From assembly GCA_042584585.1 (NCBI GenBank), contig JBHOSQ010000005.1:7526-71525 (forward strand): DNA of 64,000 bases, given 5' to 3'. Below the pieces are notes generated by a model, which saw nothing but the letters and a program-made list of their open reading frames with translations, did no database searches and was not told the origin of the DNA. Positions 23,159 to 32,942 of this stretch are shown piece after piece; within the stretch, counting starts at the first letter, position 1; each line of letters opens with the position of its first letter. The DNA comes from an archaeon. GTDB lineage: Archaea; B1Sed10-29; WALL01. The position numbers were made by a program, and so were the translations under genes.

Positions 23159-25191
23159 GAATCATCGTGGCAGAAAAAGCGATTGCGGCGAAGCGTATCG
23201 CCGAAATACTTGGGTCGAAGGCACCCAAGCCAATCCGCGAGGGAAGGACCACGGTCTACGACATCGGGAACGACACAGTTGTAATCGCGATGAGTGGCCA
23301 CGTGCTGAACGTGGACTATCCCAAGGCCTACAACAACTGGCGCGCGGTGAACCTGCGCCAGCTCGTGAACGCGCCGCTGCGTTACGAGGCGTCCATGCCG
23401 TCCATCGTGACTGCACTGAAAAAGTACGGCAAAAACGCTGACCTAATCACGATTGCCACGGACTACGACACAGAGGGCGAGTCCATCGGCCGCGAGGCAT
23501 TGACGATAATCAACAAGAAAACAATCAAGGTCAACCGCGCCCACTTTTCTGCCATCACTCCTGAAGAGGTCCGCCACGCGTTTGACAATCTTGTCCCGCT
23601 CGACTACAACTTGGCGGACTCTGCGGACTGCCGCAGGGAAGTCGACTTGATTTGGGGCGCTGTACTGACGCGCTACGTTTCATTGGCCGCCGCGCGCCTG
23701 GGCAAAGACTTCTTGTCCGTGGGCCGGGTGCAGACCCCGACCCTCGCATTAATCGTTGACCGCGAGAAAGAGCGCCGCGCCTTCAAGGCAACGCCTTACT
23801 GGGAAATGCTGGCGGTCTTCAACAAGGGCAAGGACTTCGAGGCGTCGCATTCCACTGGCCGCTTCACTGCCGAGCCCAAGGAGCTTTTCGAGCGCCTCAA
23901 AAAAGAAAAAGAGGGCACGGTCAAGGACGTCAGCAAGAAAAAGAAGAACTTGTTCCCGCCAACGCCGTTCAACACGACGGAATTCCTTCGTTCCGCCAGC
24001 TCAATAGGCGTCGACCCGTCGAGGGCAATGGTTATCGCCGAGTCGCTTTACACGTCCGGGTTCATCAGCTATCCCCGAACCGACAACACTGTTTTCCCGG
24101 AGTCAATCCAGCTCAAGAAAATCACCGAATCGTTTCTGGGTGGAGAGTTCGACAAGGACGCGAAGCTCGTGCTTGCCCAAAAGAAGCTTGTCCCAACGAA
24201 AGGCAAGAAAAAGACGACCGACCACCCGCCTATCCACCCGGTGGCTCCCGCTTCAAGCAAAGTGCTTCCCTCGGACCAGTGGAAGGTCTACGAATTAATC
24301 GTCCGCAGGTTCTTTTCGACGATGCTCCCGAAATGCGAGCTGGACACCGTGCGCGCTCTCATTGAAGTTACGGGCGAGGACTTCGTGGCGAACGGCCAGA
24401 CCATCCGCTCGCCCGGCTGGAAAGCAGTTTACACTTATTCCAAGACGAAGGAAGTCGAGCTCCCGCCTTTGGCGAAGGGTGACGTGGTGAAGCTGAAGGA
24501 CTTGAGTTTGCTTGCAAAGGAGACCCAGCCACCGAAGCTTTACACTCCGTCCGCGCTCATCAAGGCGCTGGAGGACAAAAACCTCGGCACCAAGTCGACG
24601 AGGCCCGAGATAATCCGCAAGCTCGTGAGCAGGAACTATATCCGTGGCACCAAGAACTACGAGCCGACTGAAGTCGCGTTCGCAGTAATCAGTGTCCTTG
24701 AGAAAGTGGCCTCGGACATCACGAGCCCGAAAATGACTTCTAAGCTGGAAAAAGAGATGGAACTCATCGGTGCTGGCGAGAAAAAGAAGCCTGATGTGGT
24801 TGATGCCTCGCGGAAGATGCTTGACACCATCATGGATGAGCTGACGCGCGGCCACGACGAAATCAGCAAGTCGCTGCGTGGCGCGGTCGCGGACGTGAAC
24901 ACAGTTGGAAAGTGTGAGTGCAGTGGTGACTTGCGCATCATTACTTCCCGGGCGTCCGGAAAGCGCTTTGTGGGGTGCTCGCGATACAGCGAGGGATGCC
25001 GTGTGTCGTACCCGTTGCCGCAAAAAGGAAAAGTGATTCCATTGGGCACGGTGTGCGAGCCGTGTGGCACTCCGAGGATAAAGGTCTTGAACGGGCGCCG
25101 CAGTTACGAGATGTGCATCGACATGAACTGCGAGACCAAGAAGGACTGGGGAAAGAAAAAAGAAAAGAAGAAAGAAACGAAGGCTAAATGA
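23155..25191 (+). CDS. topA: DNA topoisomerase, type IA (TopA/Topo III-like)
   Basis: Toprim N-terminus (MRIIVAEK...), the catalytic SYPRTD motif (FISYPRTD), and C-terminal Cys4 zinc ribbons. Confidence 0.85.
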   Translation: MRIIVAEKAIAAKRIAEILGSKAPKPIREGRTTVYDIGNDTVVIAMSGHVLNVDYPKAYNNWRAVNLRQLVNAPLRYEASMPSIVTALKKYGKNADLITIATDYDTEGESIGREALTIINKKTIKVNRAHFSAITPEEVRHAFDNLVPLDYNLADSADCRREVDLIWGAVLTRYVSLAAARLGKDFLSVGRVQTPTLALIVDREKERRAFKATPYWEMLAVFNKGKDFEASHSTGRFTAEPKELFERLKKEKEGTVKDVSKKKKNLFPPTPFNTTEFLRSASSIGVDPSRAMVIAESLYTSGFISYPRTDNTVFPESIQLKKITESFLGGEFDKDAKLVLAQKKLVPTKGKKKTTDHPPIHPVAPASSKVLPSDQWKVYELIVRRFFSTMLPKCELDTVRALIEVTGEDFVANGQTIRSPGWKAVYTYSKTKEVELPPLAKGDVVKLKDLSLLAKETQPPKLYTPSALIKALEDKNLGTKSTRPEIIRKLVSRNYIRGTKNYEPTEVAFAVISVLEKVASDITSPKMTSKLEKEMELIGAGEKKKPDVVDASRKMLDTIMDELTRGHDEISKSLRGAVADVNTVGKCECSGDLRIITSRASGKRFVGCSRYSEGCRVSYPLPQKGKVIPLGTVCEPCGTPRIKVLNGRRSYEMCIDMNCETKKDWGKKKEKKKETKAK

Positions 25192-25660
25192 CTTTTATTT
25201 TGTGCGTTTCTTTTAGCGTTTTGAATCCAACCATTCCGAGCCCACGGCCGTTTCCTTCGCCAAGGGCTTTCGCGACTTTTTTTATTACATGTGTGTACTC
25301 GTCTCGGTCCTTCACGCGGAACTTTATCAAGTAGTCCCATTCGCCAGAGATGAAGAACACTTCGAGCACTTCAGGAATTGCAGCCAGCAGTTTGGGGATG
25401 TCCTCGACAAGATCCAGGTCTTTTCTGAGTGGCACACGGCCAAGGGTAAACGCCACAAACCCTCTGCCTGTTTTCTCTGGGTCAACGGTTGCGCTAAGCC
25501 CAGTAACATATCCTTCACGCACGAGCTTGTCTATCTTTGTCTTCACTGTTGAAGTCGGCAGCCCAAGCTTGTGCGCCAACATTGTGACCCTTGGGACACA
25601 TGCATCGTCTTTCTGCAGCAGGTTCAAAAGCTTCTTGTCCTCTGCTTTAAGCGCCTTCAT
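25184..25660 (-). CDS. Lrp/AsnC family transcriptional regulator
   Basis: HTH N-terminus and a RAM/AsnC C-terminal domain; 158 aa. Confidence 0.85.
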   Translation of the reverse strand: MKALKAEDKKLLNLLQKDDACVPRVTMLAHKLGLPTSTVKTKIDKLVREGYVTGLSATVDPEKTGRGFVAFTLGRVPLRKDLDLVEDIPKLLAAIPEVLEVFFISGEWDYLIKFRVKDRDEYTHVIKKVAKALGEGNGRGLGMVGFKTLKETHKIKVI

Positions 25661-25755
25661 TACGTATGGTATGCGGTTTTTTGCATATAAACCCGTATGT
25701 TTTACGTATATGGTTCGGGAATCTTCTTTTAAAACCCTTGCAATAACTATTCAGG
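25661..25755. promoter_or_regulatory. back-to-back promoters of lrp and the ThrRS-ED-like operon, with repeated (T)ACGTAT half-sites
   Basis: TTTATATG (lrp) and TTTTAAAA (plus-strand operon) boxes sit ~26 nt from their starts. TACGTATGG / CCGTATG / TTACGTATATGG repeats flank the lrp TATA. Confidence 0.35.
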
Positions 25756-26196
25756 ATGCGGGGCGTTATACTTGGCTGCAGAAAGTTCAAGTACACAGAT
25801 ACCCGCAAGTCCACTTGGCCGAAAGGGATTTTTCCCACTGCGTTTGGAAGCGGCGAGTTCCGTGATGCCATTGTGGTCTTGTCCTGCATAGAGAAAGGGG
25901 ATAACATGGAGTACATTGAGTCTGCGGTGCAAAGGGTAGTGGAGCTGAACAATGCGTTCCACCGAAAGAAGAAAGTGGTAATCCTGCCTTTCGCGCACTT
26001 GTCGAACAAACTGGAGCACCCGCGCAAGGCTCTTCCGTTGTTGGTCCATTTCCAGGAGCGCCTTCAGGAAGAAGGGTTTTCGGTTGGCTCGGCGAGTTTC
26101 GGCACGGACAAGGACGCGTTGTTCGACATTCTTGGTCACCGCGCGAGTGTTTCGTACTTTGAATTTCCTTACAATGGAAAGCAGGAAGTGGAATGA
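25756..26196 (+). CDS. free-standing threonyl-tRNA synthetase editing-domain-like (DTD2/ThrRS-ED fold) protein
   Basis: Motifs ...ILPFAHLSNKLEHP... and GFSVGSASFG resemble the archaeal ThrRS N-terminal editing domain. Only 146 aa, with no synthetase core. Confidence 0.4.
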   Translation: MRGVILGCRKFKYTDTRKSTWPKGIFPTAFGSGEFRDAIVVLSCIEKGDNMEYIESAVQRVVELNNAFHRKKKVVILPFAHLSNKLEHPRKALPLLVHFQERLQEEGFSVGSASFGTDKDALFDILGHRASVSYFEFPYNGKQEVE

Positions 26197-27203
26197 TGGA
26201 CGCACCCGTCTTGAAAGGATACATGTTCAGCAAGGAAGACATAGACCTGGCAGTGAGGGAGCAACACTTGTTGATGCTCCTCCTCGCATTCAATACCGAA
26301 TGTAATCTGGCGTGTCCTTTTTGTTTTACATCCCAAGGAAAAAAGAGTGCTGTTGAGCTAGCGGGTAAGGGCATTGGAGCTCAGCTTGTAGACCTTGCTC
26401 TTTTGAAGCAGTTGATTGACCAGGGGGGCGAACTGGGTGTTAAGTCGGTTTGCATTTGGGGCGAGGGCGAGCCGATGCTTGACAAGAAAACCGTGTTCGA
26501 GCTCGTCGACTACGCCAACAGTAAGGGCATGACACCAGTGGTTTTCACGAACGGAACCTTTGTCGACGAACATACTGCAAAGCAACTCTTTGAAAAGAAT
26601 GTGTCTGTCGTCGGCAAGCTTTACAGCTTTGACCCGGCAGTGAACGAGGAGCTTACGGGCGGCAAGAGGCGTTACAGCTACGTCGAATTCGCTGGCAGAA
26701 AAGTACCGTCCCATATAATGGCTTTGCTGGAGGCCGGCTTCGCAGGTACTAATCGTTTCGCGCTCCACACCGTGGTGACCACAAAAAACATTGGTGAACT
26801 CTCTACAGTGTGGAGGTGGGAACGGGAGCAAGGCATAATCCCGTTCATGGACTTCTTGTACATGCCTAACCCTAGCCTGGACCTGGGAGTCGAAGAGCGG
26901 GTGAAGCTACAGAAACAAATCTGGGAACTTGACAAGGGGTTGGGCTTTGACTATGGCCTCACCATAGGGCCCGCACTTGGCCCAAGGAAGTGTGACACGC
27001 GGGCATCCCTCTTTGTTGGCGCGCATGGGATAGCGCGCGTCTGTGGAGCAACTTACAGGTTTCTGGGCGACACGCGGACCACGCCACTAAAGCAGATAAT
27101 CCAACGGAAGCAGGAGGTTGACGCGGGTCTTTGCAGGGGGACAGAAAAAGGCTGCGTCTTCTGTGACTGCTACTTATATAATCAAGAGAAGGTGAAAAAA
27201 TGA
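26193..27203 (+). CDS. radical SAM protein with C-terminal Cys-rich (SPASM/twitch-like) region
   Basis: CNLACPFC (CxxxCxxC) motif, a GEGEP SAM-binding motif, and C-terminal Cys clusters (C-x16-C ... CRGTEKGCVFCDC). Confidence 0.7.
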   Translation: MMDAPVLKGYMFSKEDIDLAVREQHLLMLLLAFNTECNLACPFCFTSQGKKSAVELAGKGIGAQLVDLALLKQLIDQGGELGVKSVCIWGEGEPMLDKKTVFELVDYANSKGMTPVVFTNGTFVDEHTAKQLFEKNVSVVGKLYSFDPAVNEELTGGKRRYSYVEFAGRKVPSHIMALLEAGFAGTNRFALHTVVTTKNIGELSTVWRWEREQGIIPFMDFLYMPNPSLDLGVEERVKLQKQIWELDKGLGFDYGLTIGPALGPRKCDTRASLFVGAHGIARVCGATYRFLGDTRTTPLKQIIQRKQEVDAGLCRGTEKGCVFCDCYLYNQEKVKK

Positions 27204-27598
27204 AAATTCCTGAAGAAGCAAAAAAACTTTTTGATGCCCAGGACATTGTGGCGTTCGGCACTGCCGACGCGAATGGCGTGCCCAACGTGTGCGCTGTGTT
27301 CTGGAAGACCGTAACTGCTGAGGACACTATCCTGATATTGGACAATTTTTTCAAGCAGACGAAGCAAAACCTCGCGGAAAACAGTGAAGTATGTATCTCT
27401 TTTTGGGACACTTCAACAGAAGAGGGGTACAAACTCAAAGGCACTGCAACTTACCACACTAAAGGCCAGGTGTTCGAGCAAGGACAGGCGTGGATGCAGT
27501 CCAAAAAGCCCGGGCGCGTTCCACGGGGTGTTGTCGAAGTAAAAGTCAACCAGGTCTTTGTCATCACTCCGGGCGAACACGCAGGCGAGCTGTTATAA
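27200..27598 (+). CDS. pyridoxamine 5'-phosphate oxidase-like FMN-binding split-barrel protein
   Basis: 132 aa with a PNPOx-like pattern; ATGA overlap with the upstream gene. Confidence 0.55.
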   Translation: MKIPEEAKKLFDAQDIVAFGTADANGVPNVCAVFWKTVTAEDTILILDNFFKQTKQNLAENSEVCISFWDTSTEEGYKLKGTATYHTKGQVFEQGQAWMQSKKPGRVPRGVVEVKVNQVFVITPGEHAGELL

Positions 27599-27640
27599 CT
27601 TTTTATACTGCCCCGCGAATAACTCCGTTGATGGAAATCG

Positions 27641-28356
27641 AGCTGGACTTGAAGAAGTCCTTGCACGAGAACGCGGGCGACTACTACGACCGCGCGAAGA
27701 AGCTGAAGAAAAAAGCCGCGGGCGCGCGCGAAGCGCTCGAGGCAAGCAAGCGCGAGCTGGAGAAAGCCCAAGAAACCGAAAAGCCCACCACGCTCGAGAA
27801 AAAGCGAAAGCGCGACTGGTTCGAAAAATACCACTGGCTCAAGACCACCAACGGCTTTTTGGTTGTCGCTGGCCGCGACGCCAAAAGCAACGAAGCTGTC
27901 GTCAAGCGCCAAATGAAAAAAGACGACTTGTTCTTCCATGCCGACATACAAGGCGCGGCAGTCACAATCCTAATCGACGGGCAAAAAGCCAAGAAACAAG
28001 ACCGCGAGGACGCAGCAAAACTAGCCGCAGTCTTTTCAAAGGCATGGGGTGCGGGCGTCGGCTCAATCAACGTCTACTCAGTCAAGCCAGACCAAGTCAA
28101 GACCGCAGCCAAAGCAGGCGAATCTTTGGCAAAGGGCTCTTTTGTCATGGAAGGCAAGCGCGAGTGGTTCAAGAGCGTCCCACTAGAAATCTTCGCTGTT
28201 TTTGACGGGTTTCCAGCGGTTTCCGCGACCCAAGGCATCCGCATCACCCCCGGAAAAACCAAGAAAAGCGACCTAGCCAAAAAGCTCAGGGCAAAGTTCG
28301 GCGGCACACTCGACGACTGGATGCTCGTCCTCCCCAGCGGGGGTGACATGAAGTGA
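27641..28356 (+). CDS. NFACT-R (DUF814) domain protein with N-terminal coiled coil
   Basis: ...WLKTTNGFLVVAGRDAKSNEAVVKRQMKKDDLFFHADIQGAAV... is typical of the NFACT-R domain. The ORF track start at 27490 is an over-extension. Confidence 0.55.
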
Positions 28357-28526
28357 AATCATTCACAGAACTCGTAAGGGACCCAAACTTCACCATCGCA
28401 CTCGCAGCAGCCTTTATTCTCGCGGGGTGGAACCTCGCGTACGGCTCGTGGTGGATAGGCGTGGTATTTCTCGTTCTTATAATGGGCTCGATAGCCCTAA
28501 ACGTGTGGAAAACCCGCAAAGCTTAA
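28353..28526 (+). CDS. small predicted membrane protein (57 aa)
   Basis: GTG start in a GTGA overlap with the NFACT-R gene; two predicted hydrophobic helices. Below the ORF-track size cutoff. Confidence 0.25.
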   Translation: MKSFTELVRDPNFTIALAAAFILAGWNLAYGSWWIGVVFLVLIMGSIALNVWKTRKA

Positions 28527-29477: not shown

Positions 29478-30188
29478 TCAGATTACGCCTTTGCCGACTA
29501 TCTTGAAGTTTGCCCGCTGGCCTTCTTTCATGAACGGGTGCTTGACCAACCGGGCGTACCGGTCGGACGCATGCGACAGTTCAACAATCGCTTTTGACGA
29601 GTACTTCATGGTGTCGCCGCCGGCCGGCTCGATGCCACCACGGTCCAGGTTGCTGTAAACTTGGTTCGTCACGAGCACAGGAATATTTTTCTTCCTCGCG
29701 ATGTCCAGAAGCGCAGCCATCTGCAAGCCAAGTTCCCTGTTCGCCTTGTGCGGCTCTTCCCTGTCGAGCTCAAGCCTGAAGTGATAGATGATGCTGTCCA
29801 CGACAACCAAGGCCAATCCCTCAATCTCCCACGCCGCGTCGATGGCGGCGCCCTGCTCGCTCATGCTCGCAGGCTCACGCAAAACAATCGACTTCAATGC
29901 TTCCTTGCTTGGCTGCATCTGCTCGAGGCGCTTCAAATTGAACGAGCCCTCGGGGTCGACGAACAAAACCTTGCCCCCCATGCGCGTCGCGTTGATTGAG
30001 GCCTGCAGCGCCAGGTTGCTCTTGCCGCTTCCAGCCGGACCATAGACTTGCGTGATAATCCGCGACGGAAGGCCGCCGCCCAGCAAATCGTCTATAGGAC
30101 AATTGAGGGGTATGTTTTCAATCATATCAAGGGTTCCCGCGTATGTTTTATGTGGTCCCGGGCGTGGTTTAGTATCCTTTCCTTGCAA
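29478..30188 (-). CDS. radB: RadB-like RecA-superfamily ATPase
   Basis: Walker A GPAGSGKS. About 230 aa, lacking the N-terminal HhH domain of RadA. Confidence 0.7.
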   Translation of the reverse strand: MQGKDTKPRPGPHKTYAGTLDMIENIPLNCPIDDLLGGGLPSRIITQVYGPAGSGKSNLALQASINATRMGGKVLFVDPEGSFNLKRLEQMQPSKEALKSIVLREPASMSEQGAAIDAAWEIEGLALVVVDSIIYHFRLELDREEPHKANRELGLQMAALLDIARKKNIPVLVTNQVYSNLDRGGIEPAGGDTMKYSSKAIVELSHASDRYARLVKHPFMKEGQRANFKIVGKGVI

Positions 30189-30709
30189 GTTCCACAGTAA
30201 TCCTTCTTGCCCACGTCTTCAGTGGTCATGTGGTCGCCCATGACGCAGTCCTCGTCCTCGCAGTGCGTGCCTTTTGCTGTTGTCTTGGTCTTGTACCTGC
30301 CATGCGGGACAGAGTCAAGCGCTTCGCCGAGCCCGTGCTTCCCGACTTTTTTCAAGGCAGGCAGTACATTCTCCTTGCCAACCGCGTCCTCGACCGCCGG
30401 GATGGAGCAAACGAGCGTCTGGCCAGACTTGTGGCCCCAGGGGGACTCCACGTCTTCCACATGCACCTTCTTGCCCGTCAAGTGAATCCGTAAGTTAAAT
30501 TCGCTGTTCAAATGCTCTGCCAGCGTCTTCGCGTCTATGCGCTCTTCCCCCGCCACTAATTTAGTTGCGTGCTCTTTTTCATCCTGCTCCACAGGCCAGG
30601 CCTTCAGGTCCAGCCCAAGCTCGTCAGCGGCTTCCTTCAGCCCGTCCAAAACAGCTTGAATCTGCGCCTTAGACACCTTGGGGGCATGACTCACATACGC
30701 CGTTATCAT
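30122..30709 (-). CDS. hypothetical protein with C-terminal zinc-ribbon-like Cys pairs
   Basis: Probable start at the internal MITAYV (30709). C-terminal ...CEDEDC...CGTC. The upstream part of the ORF-track ORF overlaps the cdc48 start region. Confidence 0.35.
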
Positions 30710-30779
30710 AATCCTCTGCCTCGCTCGATTATTTATACCCCCTTCAACTAATATACCTAACTCCCGCAGAGTGATTTCT
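30710..30779. promoter_or_regulatory. divergent promoter region (two TATA-like boxes) between the hypothetical Zn-ribbon gene and cdc48
   Basis: ATTATTTATACCC and CTAATATACC AT-rich boxes sit ~25-30 nt from each start, inside a 70-nt intergenic spacer. Confidence 0.35.
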
Positions 30780-32942
30780 ATGGCTGACATAAAGCTTAAG
30801 GTCCAGGAAGCGATGCAGAACGACGTAGGCCGCGGAATAGTGCGCATCGACACCGAGACACGCGAGGCACTCGGGCTCACGTCCGGAGACATAGTCCAGG
30901 TCAAGGGCACCACCGACACCGTCGGCGTCGTCTGGCAGTGCTACCCACAGGACGAAGGCCTCAAAATCATCCGCATGGACGGCCTCATTCGCCAAAACTC
31001 CGGAGTCGGCATCGGCGACTACGTCAAAATCGAGAAGACCGAGCTAAAGCCAGCCACAAAAATAACTCTCGCGCCATCAAAGCCCGTGAGGTTCTCACCA
31101 GGCTTCGAGTCATACGTCCAAAAGCGACTAATCGGCAGGCCCCTAATCAAAGGCGACCGCATACTCATTGGTGTGTTCGGCACAAGCCTCGTCATGATAG
31201 CAACCAAAACCACTCCAAAAGGCTTCGTGCAAATCACGCAGGACACTCAAATCGAGCTCAAGACCGAGCCAATCAAAGAAATAGTCGGAGTCCCCCAAGT
31301 CACTTACGAAGACATCGGCGGAGTCAAGGACGAAGTCCACAAAGTCCGCGAAATGATTGAAATCCCACTCAAGCACCCCGAACTGTTCGAGCGCCTCGGA
31401 ATCGAGCCCCCGAAAGGCGTCCTCCTCCACGGCCCGCCGGGCACAGGCAAGACACTTTTGGCAAAGGCAGTGGCAAACGAAAGTGACGCCAACTTTATTT
31501 CCATCCAGGGCCCAGAAATTATTTCCAAGTTCGTGGGCGAAGCCGAGGAAAGGCTCCGCCAAATCTTCAAGCAAGCAGAAGAAAACGCGCCAACAATAAT
31601 CTTCATCGACGAAATCGACGCCATCGCGCCAAAGCGCGGCGAAGTCACCGGCGAAGTAGAGAAGCGTGTCGTCGCCCAACTATTGGCCTCAATGGATGGG
31701 CTGCAGACCCGCGGCAACGTAGTCGTAATCGCGGCCACCAACCGAGTCAACGCAATCGACGAAGCGCTGCGCCGCCCAGGGAGGTTCGACCGAGAAATTG
31801 AGCTCGGCGTCCCCGACCGCAAGGGCCGCAAGGAAATCCTGCAAATTCACACGCGCAACATGCCGCTTGAAGGGGTTGACCTGGACAGGATGGCAGACAT
31901 CACCCACGGCTACGTTGGCGCCGATGTCCAAGCCCTTGCCAAGGAAGCGGCCATGAAAACACTGCGCCGCCTAATCCCCAAAATGAACCTTGAGGGCGAG
32001 GACGGCATCCCCACCGAAGTCCTGGAAAACCTTAAGGTCACCAAGGACGACTTCATGGACGCGTTCAGGGAAGTCCAGCCCAGCGCCATGCGCGAAGTCC
32101 TCGTAGAAGTCCCGAACGTGAAGTGGAAGGACATCGGCGGCCTCGACGACGTCAAGAAGCGGCTCAAGGAAGCCATTGAATGGCCAATCAAAAACCCCAA
32201 GATGTTCACGCGACTCGGAATCCGCCCGCCGAAAGGAATTTTCCTGTTCGGCCCGCCCGGCAGCGGCAAAACCATGCTCGCCAAAGCAGTGGCAACCGAG
32301 AGCGAGACAAACTTCATCGTGGTCAAAGGCCCGGAACTCCTGTCCAAGTGGGTTGGCGAGTCCGAGCGTGGCGTGCGAGAAATCTTCCGCAAGGCCCGCC
32401 TTGCCGCACCCGTAGTAATCCTGTTCGACGAAATCGACGCGCTCGCGCCAAAGCGCGGCATGCATGCGGGCTCAGCAGCTACGGAAACAGTGGTCAACCA
32501 ACTGCTGACCGAATTGGACGGCGTTGAAGAATTGAAGGACGTGGTAATCTTAGCAACGTCAAACCGCCCGGACATCGTCGACCCAAGCCTCTTGAGGCCG
32601 GGCAGGTTCGACAGAATGATCTTCGTTCCGGCTCCGGACGCAAAGTCGCGCCTCGCAATCTTTGAGGTGCACACCAAAAAGATGCCTCTCGCCAAAACAG
32701 TGAAGCTTGAGACGCTCGCGTCTTCCACAGACGGGTTCTCGGGCGCAGACATAGAGGGCGTGTGCCGCGAGGCAGCGATGAACGCGCTGCGCCACAACAA
32801 GAAAGCCAAAGAAGTAACGGAAAAGGACTTCGAGAAAGCGATGAAGGCGGCGAGGCCGTCCATCCAGGAAGATGACTTGAAGCGCTACCACGGGTTCATG
32901 AAAGAGCACAAGTCAATAGACACGGCGAGCTACATCGGCTAG
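30780..32942 (+). CDS. Cdc48/VCP-like AAA+ ATPase (double AAA domains)
   Basis: N-terminal double-psi barrel, then two AAA modules (GPPGTGKT; GPPGSGKT) with second-region-of-homology motifs. Confidence 0.9.

Follow-up and report, generated by a model that had tools for sequence, protein, structure and literature searches.

Why does a gene for a bare editing domain of threonyl-tRNA synthetase (ThrRS) stand directly upstream of a gene for a radical S-adenosylmethionine (SAM) enzyme in an archaeal genome, and do the two genes belong together? The question is raised by a stretch of 64,000 nucleotides of contig JBHOSQ010000005.1 (assembly GCA_042584585.1, positions 7,526 to 71,525), to which we refer as the window. 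A first-pass annotation, made without database searches, had described an operon of five plus-strand genes at positions 25,756–28,526 of the window: a free-standing protein similar to the ThrRS editing domain (ORF1), a radical SAM enzyme (rSAM), a PNPOx-like flavin-binding protein, a stand-alone NFACT-R protein and a small protein with transmembrane (TM) segments. All five open reading frames (ORFs) were found there, and the domain names given to the first four were confirmed by Pfam and NCBIfam. The pairing of the editing domain (ED) with the radical SAM enzyme is real, rare and undescribed.

The editing domain and the radical SAM enzyme

ORF1 (25,756–26,196, plus strand, 146 aa; GenBank MFC2174695.1) matched the Pfam family PF08915 (tRNA-Thr_ED) with an E-value of 2e-19 and 70.5 bits, compared to a gathering score of 30.2, and its residues 1–129 were aligned to positions 1–129 of the 137 positions of the model. 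The match to the N-terminal domain (NTD) of Pyrococcus abyssi ThrRS in PDB (2hl1/1y2q) had an E-value of 1.5e-9, and the motifs PFAHLS and GFSVG are both present. ORF1 is thus, as had been proposed, a free-standing paralogue of the DTD-like N-terminal editing domain of archaeal ThrRS. There is no synthetase body: the 146-aa ORF is bounded by a promoter region on one side and by the rSAM gene on the other, and it scored 59.7 bits against the NCBIfam model of ThrRS (cut-off 484) and 47.5 bits (1.2e-12) against NF011500, the model of ThrRS-ed (cut-off 362). An AlphaFold2 model of ORF1, built from an alignment of four sequences, had a pLDDT of 49 and was set aside.

An exhaustive HMMER search against 1.84 billion cluster representatives (E ≤ 1e-3) returned 266 relatives of ORF1, and 113 of the 150 listed were stand-alone proteins of 120–200 aa. 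As judged from sequence, the family is a large, undescribed group of free-standing NTD-like proteins. A 90%-identical orthologue of ORF1 was found in a metagenome-assembled genome of Ca. Diapherotrites. Several contigs with stand-alone copies of this so-called archaea-specific domain also carried genes for MreB, FtsA and a penicillin-binding transpeptidase, which were seen among the distant genes used as a control set for the neighbour statistics given below; because of these genes, the family seems to be present in bacteria as well, probably in CPR/Patescibacteria. A viral or mobile-element origin was rejected, since viral contigs contained no relatives of the ED or rSAM proteins.

Residues E46, D49, P78, F79, H81, L82, S83, F115, G116 and K119 were invariant in the aligned stand-alone members. 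The core formed by P78, F79, A80 and H81 together with K119 corresponds to P80-F81-A82-H83 and K121 of the P. abyssi domain (PabNTD), which sit within 6 Å of the scissile bond, and Glu134 of PabNTD makes a cross-dimer contact holding the alpha-amine of the substrate (PMC4491819). We compared this pocket between 114 stand-alone proteins and 20 ThrRS-linked NTDs. In the Glu134 column, all 18 aligned ThrRS-linked domains had Glu (the other two were gapped there), compared to Val in 66, Glu in 19 and Ile in 7 of the stand-alone proteins; ORF1 carries Val132 at this position. Such a replacement suggests an altered amino-acid pocket. The stand-alone proteins also have signatures of their own, namely HC at positions 7–8, RP at positions 21–22 (S.RP.GI) and GH.xSV[SA][YF][RF]E, and ORF1 falls in a smaller 'SYFEFP' subgroup (GH.xSVSYFEFP). 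Taken together, the alignments point to a true NTD homologue, a putative deacylase that retains the core positioning the adenosine and the ester and has a different amino-acid pocket.

The rSAM gene (26,193–27,203, plus strand) encodes 336 aa with a match to PF04055 at 2.8e-12 and 47.5 bits (cut-off 29.5). The CxxxCxxC and GGEP-like motifs noticed in the first-pass annotation are C37-x3-C41-x2-C44, with all three Cys invariant in the alignment, and GEGEP. The same annotation saw C-terminal clusters of the SPASM/twitch type. Here the structural neighbourhood is right and the number of clusters is not: the C-terminal pattern is C267-x16-C284-x36-C321-x2-C324, with C267, C284 and C324 invariant and C321 present in most members. 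The spacing compares with that of BtrN and fits the shortened C-terminal domain of twitch-type enzymes, where three or four Cys are arranged as C-x(16–18)-C ... C-x2-C. The pattern thus indicates a single predicted auxiliary cluster of the twitch type, not SPASM with its two auxiliary clusters. No match of the rSAM to SPASM (PF13186) was found at E ≤ 0.1, and the seven-Cys motif is missing.

The AlphaFold2 model of the rSAM had a pLDDT of 89.9. In Foldseek searches with this model, SkfB, DesII, anSME, MoaA, CteB, BlsE and viperins were the closest (E-values from 1e-10 to 1e-8), with query-normalised TM-scores of 0.5–0.65 (0.53–0.65 for the best five, SkfB, DesII, anSME, MoaA and CteB) and sequence identities of 14–19%. 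No NCBIfam family reached its cut-off; the weak matches, to sactipeptide and ranthipeptide maturases and to NirJ/AhbD, covered the core of the protein and stayed far below the cut-offs (for example, 56 bits compared to 500 for NirJ2). The protein database contained 16 homologues of 40–57% identity and none above 57%, all of them metagenomic or from DPANN archaea such as Aenigmatarchaeota. A profile scan of 185,579 species-representative genomes added one true orthologue (locus L015) and a 31%-identical relative from Bacillota (L016), which does match SPASM.

A role of the rSAM in peptide maturation, as suggested earlier, was not borne out: the rSAM had no match to an RRE-type Pfam domain, and no small ORF that could encode a precursor was conserved beside the rSAM gene across 12 contexts. 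We also rejected, as the main reading, one in which a NirJ/AhbD-like rSAM, a HupZ-like barrel and an AhbA/B-like Lrp protein would act on haem, since the matches were generic and far below cut-offs and the lrp product scored much higher as an Lrp regulator than as AhbA/B. A viperin or defence reading was rejected as well, since the pVip matches covered the rSAM core alone and ORF1 had no PADLOC match.

The ED and rSAM genes of the window overlap by four nucleotides (ATGA). Co-conservation of the two, which the first-pass annotation had named as a check, was observed in locus L009, where protein P0011 is a continuous ED-rSAM fusion of 502 aa with no extra linker; its ED part is 42% and its rSAM part 53% identical to the window proteins. 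An Lrp orthologue is divergent from P0011, and a type I dehydroquinase gene follows the fusion. In locus L109, a distant ED is followed directly by an rSAM fragment with weak similarity to the window rSAM. The same cannot be said of all five genes together: downstream of the EDs most similar to ORF1 (84% and 63% identity), different genes were found.

The first-pass annotation did not recognise the combination, and in the searchable literature we found neither a stand-alone NTD nor a link between an NTD and a radical SAM enzyme described. Because of the fusions and the translational coupling we consider that the ED and the rSAM work together, and the pairing is probably functional. Still, neither strictly needs the other, since they are often found apart.

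Both genes also occur with a common third partner. In the 84%-identical ED relatives (L004–L006), the ED gene is followed by a gene for a fusion of a 2x4Fe-4S ferredoxin with thioredoxin (Fer4-Trx, ~200 aa, positions 1365–1967). These contigs end just after the Fer4-Trx gene, and an rSAM gene beyond the contig end is possible. Fer4-Trx genes were also found in rSAM clusters (L013 7028–7720, L097 1791–2417, as well as L014 and L098), and the proteins from ED contexts and rSAM contexts were 41% identical (1e-64). In two lineages (L013, L097) the cluster had the order Fer4-Trx, a ~617-aa protein, a ~128-aa protein and rSAM, the two middle proteins having no Pfam match. The proteins of 122–128 aa upstream of the rSAM in L013 and L097 were considered as candidate EDs and rejected by profile search, which found them not ED-like.

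The other recurrent neighbours of the rSAM are of two sorts, enzymes of small-molecule or amino-acid type and proteins that probably donate electrons. Type I dehydroquinase genes lie just downstream of the rSAM in L009 (2234–2908), L010 (8081–8821; likewise in the set L010–L012), L015 (2710–3450) and L182 (2287–3060), and genes for a PhzF-like isomerase just upstream of it in two lineages (L095 208–1128, L182 235–1164). These neighbours hint at a metabolite of shikimate type, or a carbocyclic one, as the substrate of the rSAM. A class III aminotransferase was present in loci L013 and L098, and a flavoprotein of the PNPOx or FMN_red type near the rSAM in the window, L095 and L182. As a separate observation, a BacA/UppP gene was located directly downstream of a 40%-identical rSAM (L099 9015–9779) and another ~2.8 kb upstream of the Bacillota relative (L016 4409–5236), with a peptidase gene and a second radical SAM gene in between.

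Regulator, flavoprotein and extent of the unit

The lrp gene (25,184–25,660, minus strand) is divergent from ORF1 and encodes an Lrp/AsnC-family regulator (Pfam AsnC_trans_reg 5e-11, with HTH_24; NCBIfam Lrp 5.8e-14). The region between the two genes (25,661–25,755) has TATA-like boxes ~26 nt upstream of both start codons; a TATA-like box at that spacing is the usual layout of leaderless archaeal transcripts. The pentamer CGTAT occurs three times in these 95 bp, compared to 0.06 expected, and is part of the imperfect palindrome ACGTATGGTATGCGG. The equivalent region of L009 has a perfect palindrome, CGCATA-T-TATGCG, and related boxes accompanied by TATA-like boxes were found in L001 (5564–5661), L003 (2447–2560), L009 (682–780), L010 (6547–6714) and L015 (1119–1285). 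The CGTAT-containing palindromes are candidate Lrp operators, conserved across lineages with proteins of only 49–63% identity.

We observed Lrp orthologues (49–88% identity) in the divergent position beside each arrangement of the two genes: beside ED alone in L001–L008, beside rSAM alone in L010–L012 and L015, beside the ED-rSAM fusion in L009 and beside separate ED and rSAM genes in the window.

The rSAM gene is followed, with another ATGA overlap of four nucleotides, by a gene for a HupZ-like split-barrel protein of 132 aa (27,200–27,598, plus strand). This PNPOx-like protein matched PF01243 (PNPOx_N) at 9.4e-16 and HupZ in PDB at 8e-12. In one other lineage only (L095/L096) was a homologue, of 55% identity, encoded near the rSAM, at a distance of 3 kb. 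We regard the protein as a candidate partner of the rSAM in electron transfer dependent on flavin mononucleotide (FMN) or in tailoring.

The first-pass annotation joined all five genes into one operon by overlaps of four nucleotides. Such overlaps exist at the ED/rSAM and rSAM/PNPOx junctions and, as GTGA, between the NFACT-R gene and the small TM ORF, while the PNPOx and NFACT-R genes are separated by a gap of 32 nt. Inside this gap there is a TATA-like box, cTTTTATAct (27,600–27,609, plus strand), ~25 nt upstream of the ATG of the NFACT-R gene; from what is generally known of archaeal promoters and leaderless mRNAs, it is a probable separate promoter of that gene. The GC content at third codon positions (GC3) was 0.55 for lrp, 0.65 for ED, 0.62 for rSAM and 0.57 for PNPOx, compared to 0.70 for NFACT-R, 0.71 for a gene for a 197-aa membrane protein and 0.70–0.78 for the flanking housekeeping genes. 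The block from lrp to PNPOx (25,184–27,598) is thus distinct in composition, which may reflect horizontal acquisition or weak expression.

None of the 80 other ED loci contained homologues of the NFACT-R protein, of the TM ORF or of the PNPOx-like protein. With its own promoter-like element, a GC3 typical of the genome and no counterparts near other EDs, the NFACT-R/TM pair does not fit a single five-gene operon. Since the overlaps, the gap with its TATA-like box and GC3 split the genes alike, the supported unit is lrp divergent from ED-rSAM-PNPOx, and the NFACT-R gene and the TM ORF make a separate unit.

The NFACT-R gene (27,631–28,356, plus strand; 241 aa from the ATG, which is also the start of the GenBank protein) had a match to NFACT-R_1 at 5.9e-28. 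The protein consists of a coiled-coil remnant, NFACT-R and a C-terminal part, with no NFACT-N; the Pfam NFACT_N match was confined to positions 369–420 of the model, and RqcH_arch (NF041120) was matched over positions 380–620 of 645 with 259 bits (cut-off 400). Among the best 120 homologues listed, 117 had 240–308 aa and three were shorter; many carried the names Micrarchaeota, Anstonellaceae or ainarchaeum, and many had NFACT or DUF814 as their annotation. We therefore see in the short NFACT-R protein a lineage-wide protein of housekeeping type, common in Micrarchaeota-like DPANN archaea, and its gene is probably a mere neighbour outside the ED/rSAM unit. From these names and from the Ca. Diapherotrites orthologue of ORF1, the host of the window is most likely itself a DPANN archaeon. 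The last ORF (28,353–28,526, plus strand, GTG start) would encode 57 aa with two hydrophobic segments; it had no Pfam or NCBIfam match and no support from homology, and we treat it as a putative gene. The GenBank products listed for the locus genes are MFC2174695.1, MFC2174696.1 and MFC2174698.1.

The window is archaeal, with genes for ABCE1, LonB, both PheRS subunits (alpha and beta), CDC48, RadB, ThiC and a MiaB-like radical SAM protein. No tRNA genes were found in the window, and ThrRS was not among the window ORFs scanned. Two further minus-strand ORFs were noticed: one of 646 aa (198–2138) with no Pfam match at 1e-5, and one of 265 aa (30,122–30,919) between radB and CDC48, which overlaps both genes, has an uncertain true start and gave faint matches to PSP1/RicT and archaemetzincin-like proteins only.

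What the editing domain may do

A wider survey of ED neighbourhoods showed a second kind of SAM-dependent partner. Protein P0021, 55% identical to ORF1, has an N-terminal ED fused to a class I methyltransferase, and the same methyltransferase is encoded directly downstream of the ED in L103 and L104; in P0065 the ED is fused to a HerA-like P-loop domain. Across 42 non-redundant stand-alone ED loci, generic class I methyltransferases made up 7 of the 59 immediate neighbours compared to none of the 108 distant genes located 4–6 positions away (Fisher p = 5e-4). The partner methyltransferases gave generic SAM-binding matches only when compared to PDB. Genes for B12-radical SAM enzymes flank the ED in L102 and are found near the ED in L112, a tRNA-splicing endonuclease gene is located 9 nt upstream of the ED in L102, and genes for a CCA-adding enzyme and Elp3 are near the rSAM in L010. 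Most neighbours of stand-alone EDs are housekeeping genes, which include those for SerRS (three loci), class II D/K/N synthetases and CysRS.

Some neighbourhoods are described here for their own sake. The commonest neighbour of stand-alone EDs was a nucleosidase-like protein of the PNP_UDP_1 family, whose gene directly precedes or follows the ED (position −1 or +1) and shares its strand in 12 of the 62 loci; PADLOC labels it 'PN-superfamily effector' (2e-25), and in L106 (2991–5081) it is fused to a methyltransferase. Distant EDs in L106, L114, L120 and L152 (for example, L152 4431–7126) belong to a conserved cassette whose genes encode, in this order, a membrane protein of 230 aa, a methyltransferase of class I, the ED and a HerA-like P-loop protein, and genes of such cassettes had weak PADLOC matches to mad2/mad8 of the MADS defence system. 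The EDs near PNP_UDP_1 proteins or mad2/mad8-like proteins are of more distant subfamilies, some of which also have SerRS as a neighbour.

For the window locus we tentatively propose the following mechanism. ORF1 would still bind the ester-linked 3'-terminal adenosine, that is, the end of an aminoacylated tRNA, and would most likely hydrolyse the ester. The twitch-type rSAM, for which the split-barrel protein of FMN type would be a reductant or a partner, would transform an amino acid or an amino-acid-like metabolite, and the ED-like protein would serve as a dedicated trans-acting aminoacyl-tRNA deacylase, removing a product or intermediate of the pathway that was mischarged onto tRNA. An amino-acid-sensing Lrp regulator would switch the whole block. 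There is a precedent for such an arrangement: in a 2026 study, clusters of genes for non-canonical amino acids were found to be flagged by free-standing tRNA deacylases from three other families, the examples being BesG of the AlaX family, a 4-fluorothreonine deacylase and the canavanyl-tRNA deacylase CtdA, and some AlaX deacylase genes adjoin radical SAM genes (PMC13149037). Four observations fit this precedent: regulation by Lrp, enzymes of amino-acid and shikimate type beside the rSAM family, the intact hydrolytic core and the altered pocket. For these reasons we favour a dedicated tRNA deacylase that would guard a pathway of amino-acid type under the control of Lrp, as the leading possibility among several and with confidence well short of firm. 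Here we infer that ORF1 is active as a deacylase and has a guarding role, of what nature the substrate of the rSAM is, and that the PNPOx-like protein donates electrons. The physical linkage of ED and rSAM, the Fer4-Trx family common to ED and rSAM contexts and the low GC3 shared by lrp, ED, rSAM and PNPOx add to the support.

A number of observations weigh against the proposal. The ED was present in just 2–3 of ~12 distinct rSAM contexts, and in a metagenome scan one of 62 stand-alone ED loci had an rSAM fragment. An rSAM seems to be missing beside the EDs nearest to ORF1 (90%, 84% and 63% identity), and the protein database has a 90%-identical ED, yet no rSAM above 57%. Relatedness of EDs does not track the partner either, as the nearest non-orthologous relative of ORF1 (P0021) is the methyltransferase fusion. 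It would also be unusual for a deacylase of the resistance type to be fused to an enzyme of biosynthesis. The genomes of DPANN archaea are small, and these archaea are not known to produce non-canonical amino acids.

One rival explanation is that there is no coupling at all, with ORF1 being a housekeeping trans-editing factor of reduced-genome archaea, a deacylase of Ser-tRNAThr or of D-aminoacyl-tRNA that possibly compensates for a deficiency in ThrRS or DTD, and with rSAM and PNPOx being an unrelated metabolic pair in an Lrp-controlled locus. The large size of the stand-alone family, the mostly housekeeping neighbours with aminoacyl-tRNA synthetases among them, and the nearest relatives found with no rSAM all agree with this, and an Lrp protein sensing amino-acid imbalance could sensibly control an editing factor. 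The isolated P. abyssi NTD is reportedly active on its own, according to other work on this domain. Isolated NTD fragments have also been assayed (PMC4491819). On the other hand, the ED-rSAM fusion and the ATGA coupling are hard to explain in this way, as are the fusions of EDs with a methyltransferase and a P-loop domain, the sharing of the Fer4-Trx family and the replacement in ORF1 of a Glu that is invariant in the aligned ThrRS-linked NTDs; we consider an uncoupled ORF1 rather unlikely. In another rival explanation the ED is not chiefly a proofreader: as a docking module it would bind the 3' end of tRNA or aminoacyl-adenosine and present this substrate to SAM enzymes (the rSAM here, class I methyltransferases elsewhere), which would then modify the tRNA or the aminoacyl group. 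In fusions with SAM enzymes the ED is always N-terminal of the enzyme (P0011, P0021), the SYFEFP subgroup is paired with two different classes of SAM enzymes, class I methyltransferases are enriched next to EDs, and there are the tRNA-related neighbours in L102 and L010; RNA-binding domains fused to tRNA-modifying methyltransferases and radical SAM enzymes would be an analogy. Most members of the ED family, however, stand alone with no SAM enzyme nearby, and the rSAM occurs mostly with no ED, beside type I dehydroquinase and PhzF, which argues against tRNA as its general substrate. We also know of no SAM-dependent chemistry on the 3' end of aminoacylated tRNA. A docking role appears unlikely to us, and no likelier is its specific form, in which the ED was repurposed as an aminoacyl-tRNA 3'-end handle for a twitch rSAM here and for class I methyltransferases in sister lineages.

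Very improbable, in our view, is that the rSAM is a SPASM-type enzyme of peptide (RiPP) or cofactor maturation, acting on the product of a small ORF nearby, or that the five genes are an operon of translation quality control in which ED, rSAM and NFACT-R would jointly rescue ribosomes. Among the nearest solved folds there are indeed maturases of peptides (SkfB, CteB and anSME), and the weak NCBIfam matches name similar enzymes. Those matches fall far short of their cut-offs, however, and the rSAM has one auxiliary-cluster motif, no SPASM or RRE match and no small ORF conserved beside it. As to ribosome rescue, the 3' ends of tRNA are a target common to NFACT-R and ED, whose genes lie 1.4 kb apart on one strand, but the NFACT-R gene has a TATA-like box of its own and a different GC3, and this lineage-wide gene was never found near other ED genes. 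The remaining probability we leave to explanations outside the four considered.

The data suggest that the ED proteins are a fourth family of such deacylases, large and unstudied, which occurs in archaea of the DPANN type and on some contigs that carry cell-division genes of bacteria. Its members are repeatedly tied to SAM-dependent enzymes, in some cases as fused genes. Should the ED guard a pathway, the family could be used to track down amino-acid chemistry in organisms whose metabolism is considered minimal. If the ED was instead recruited to present tRNA, SAM chemistry on aminoacyl-tRNA would be revealed, and with it a new class of DPANN enzymes that carry out radical reactions or methyl transfer on amino acids bound to tRNA or on the terminus of the tRNA. 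In either case, a functional partner would be known for the first time for an uncharacterised radical SAM family, and the NTD fold would have a role beyond ThrRS.

Comparison with known systems

The NFACT-R domain is common to the window protein and RqcH/NEMF, from which the former differs by lacking NFACT-N and the HhH half. HupZ and PNPOx-like proteins are single-domain split barrels, as is the 132-aa window protein, which may have FMN, F420 or haem as its cofactor and differs in having no family-level NCBIfam assignment and in being translationally coupled to an rSAM.

The window rSAM shares with the twitch/SPASM enzymes SkfB, BtrN, MoaA, anSME, DesII, BlsE and viperin the CxxxCxxC motif and GEGEP, a partial TIM barrel and a C-terminal extension bearing Cys. 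Unlike these relatives, to which it is 14–19% identical, it has no SPASM match, and its auxiliary Cys are three invariant and one semi-conserved.

ORF1 is homologous over ~130 residues to the archaeal ThrRS NTD (P. abyssi, Aeropyrum pernix, Methanocaldococcus jannaschii; 1y2q, 2hl1, 4rr6, 4rrf), with which it has in common PFAHLS, FG.xK (containing the equivalent of Lys121), the GH motif and E46/D49. It differs by the absence of a synthetase body, by Val in place of Glu134, by signatures of its own and by adjacency or fusion to SAM enzymes within its family. The crenarchaeal free-standing ThrRS-ed, a trans-acting Ser-tRNA(Thr) hydrolase (NF011500, ~390 aa), has the same editing domain. ThrRS-ed, however, keeps the anticodon-binding region and degenerate catalytic regions in ~390–410 aa (for example, P0049 and P0067), compared to the bare domain of 146 aa in ORF1.

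The deacylase-marked clusters are a parallel for the locus as a whole. Archaea and the DTD-like fold lie outside the coverage of that study (PMC13149037). Unlike the deacylases described there, the ED of the window locus belongs to the fold family of the DTD-like NTD and has an archaeal, most likely DPANN, host, and members of its family take part in fusions with enzymes. The two share one arrangement, an editing-domain paralogue beside enzymes of biosynthetic type and a regulator, and in the ED family this adjacency recurs as a fusion.

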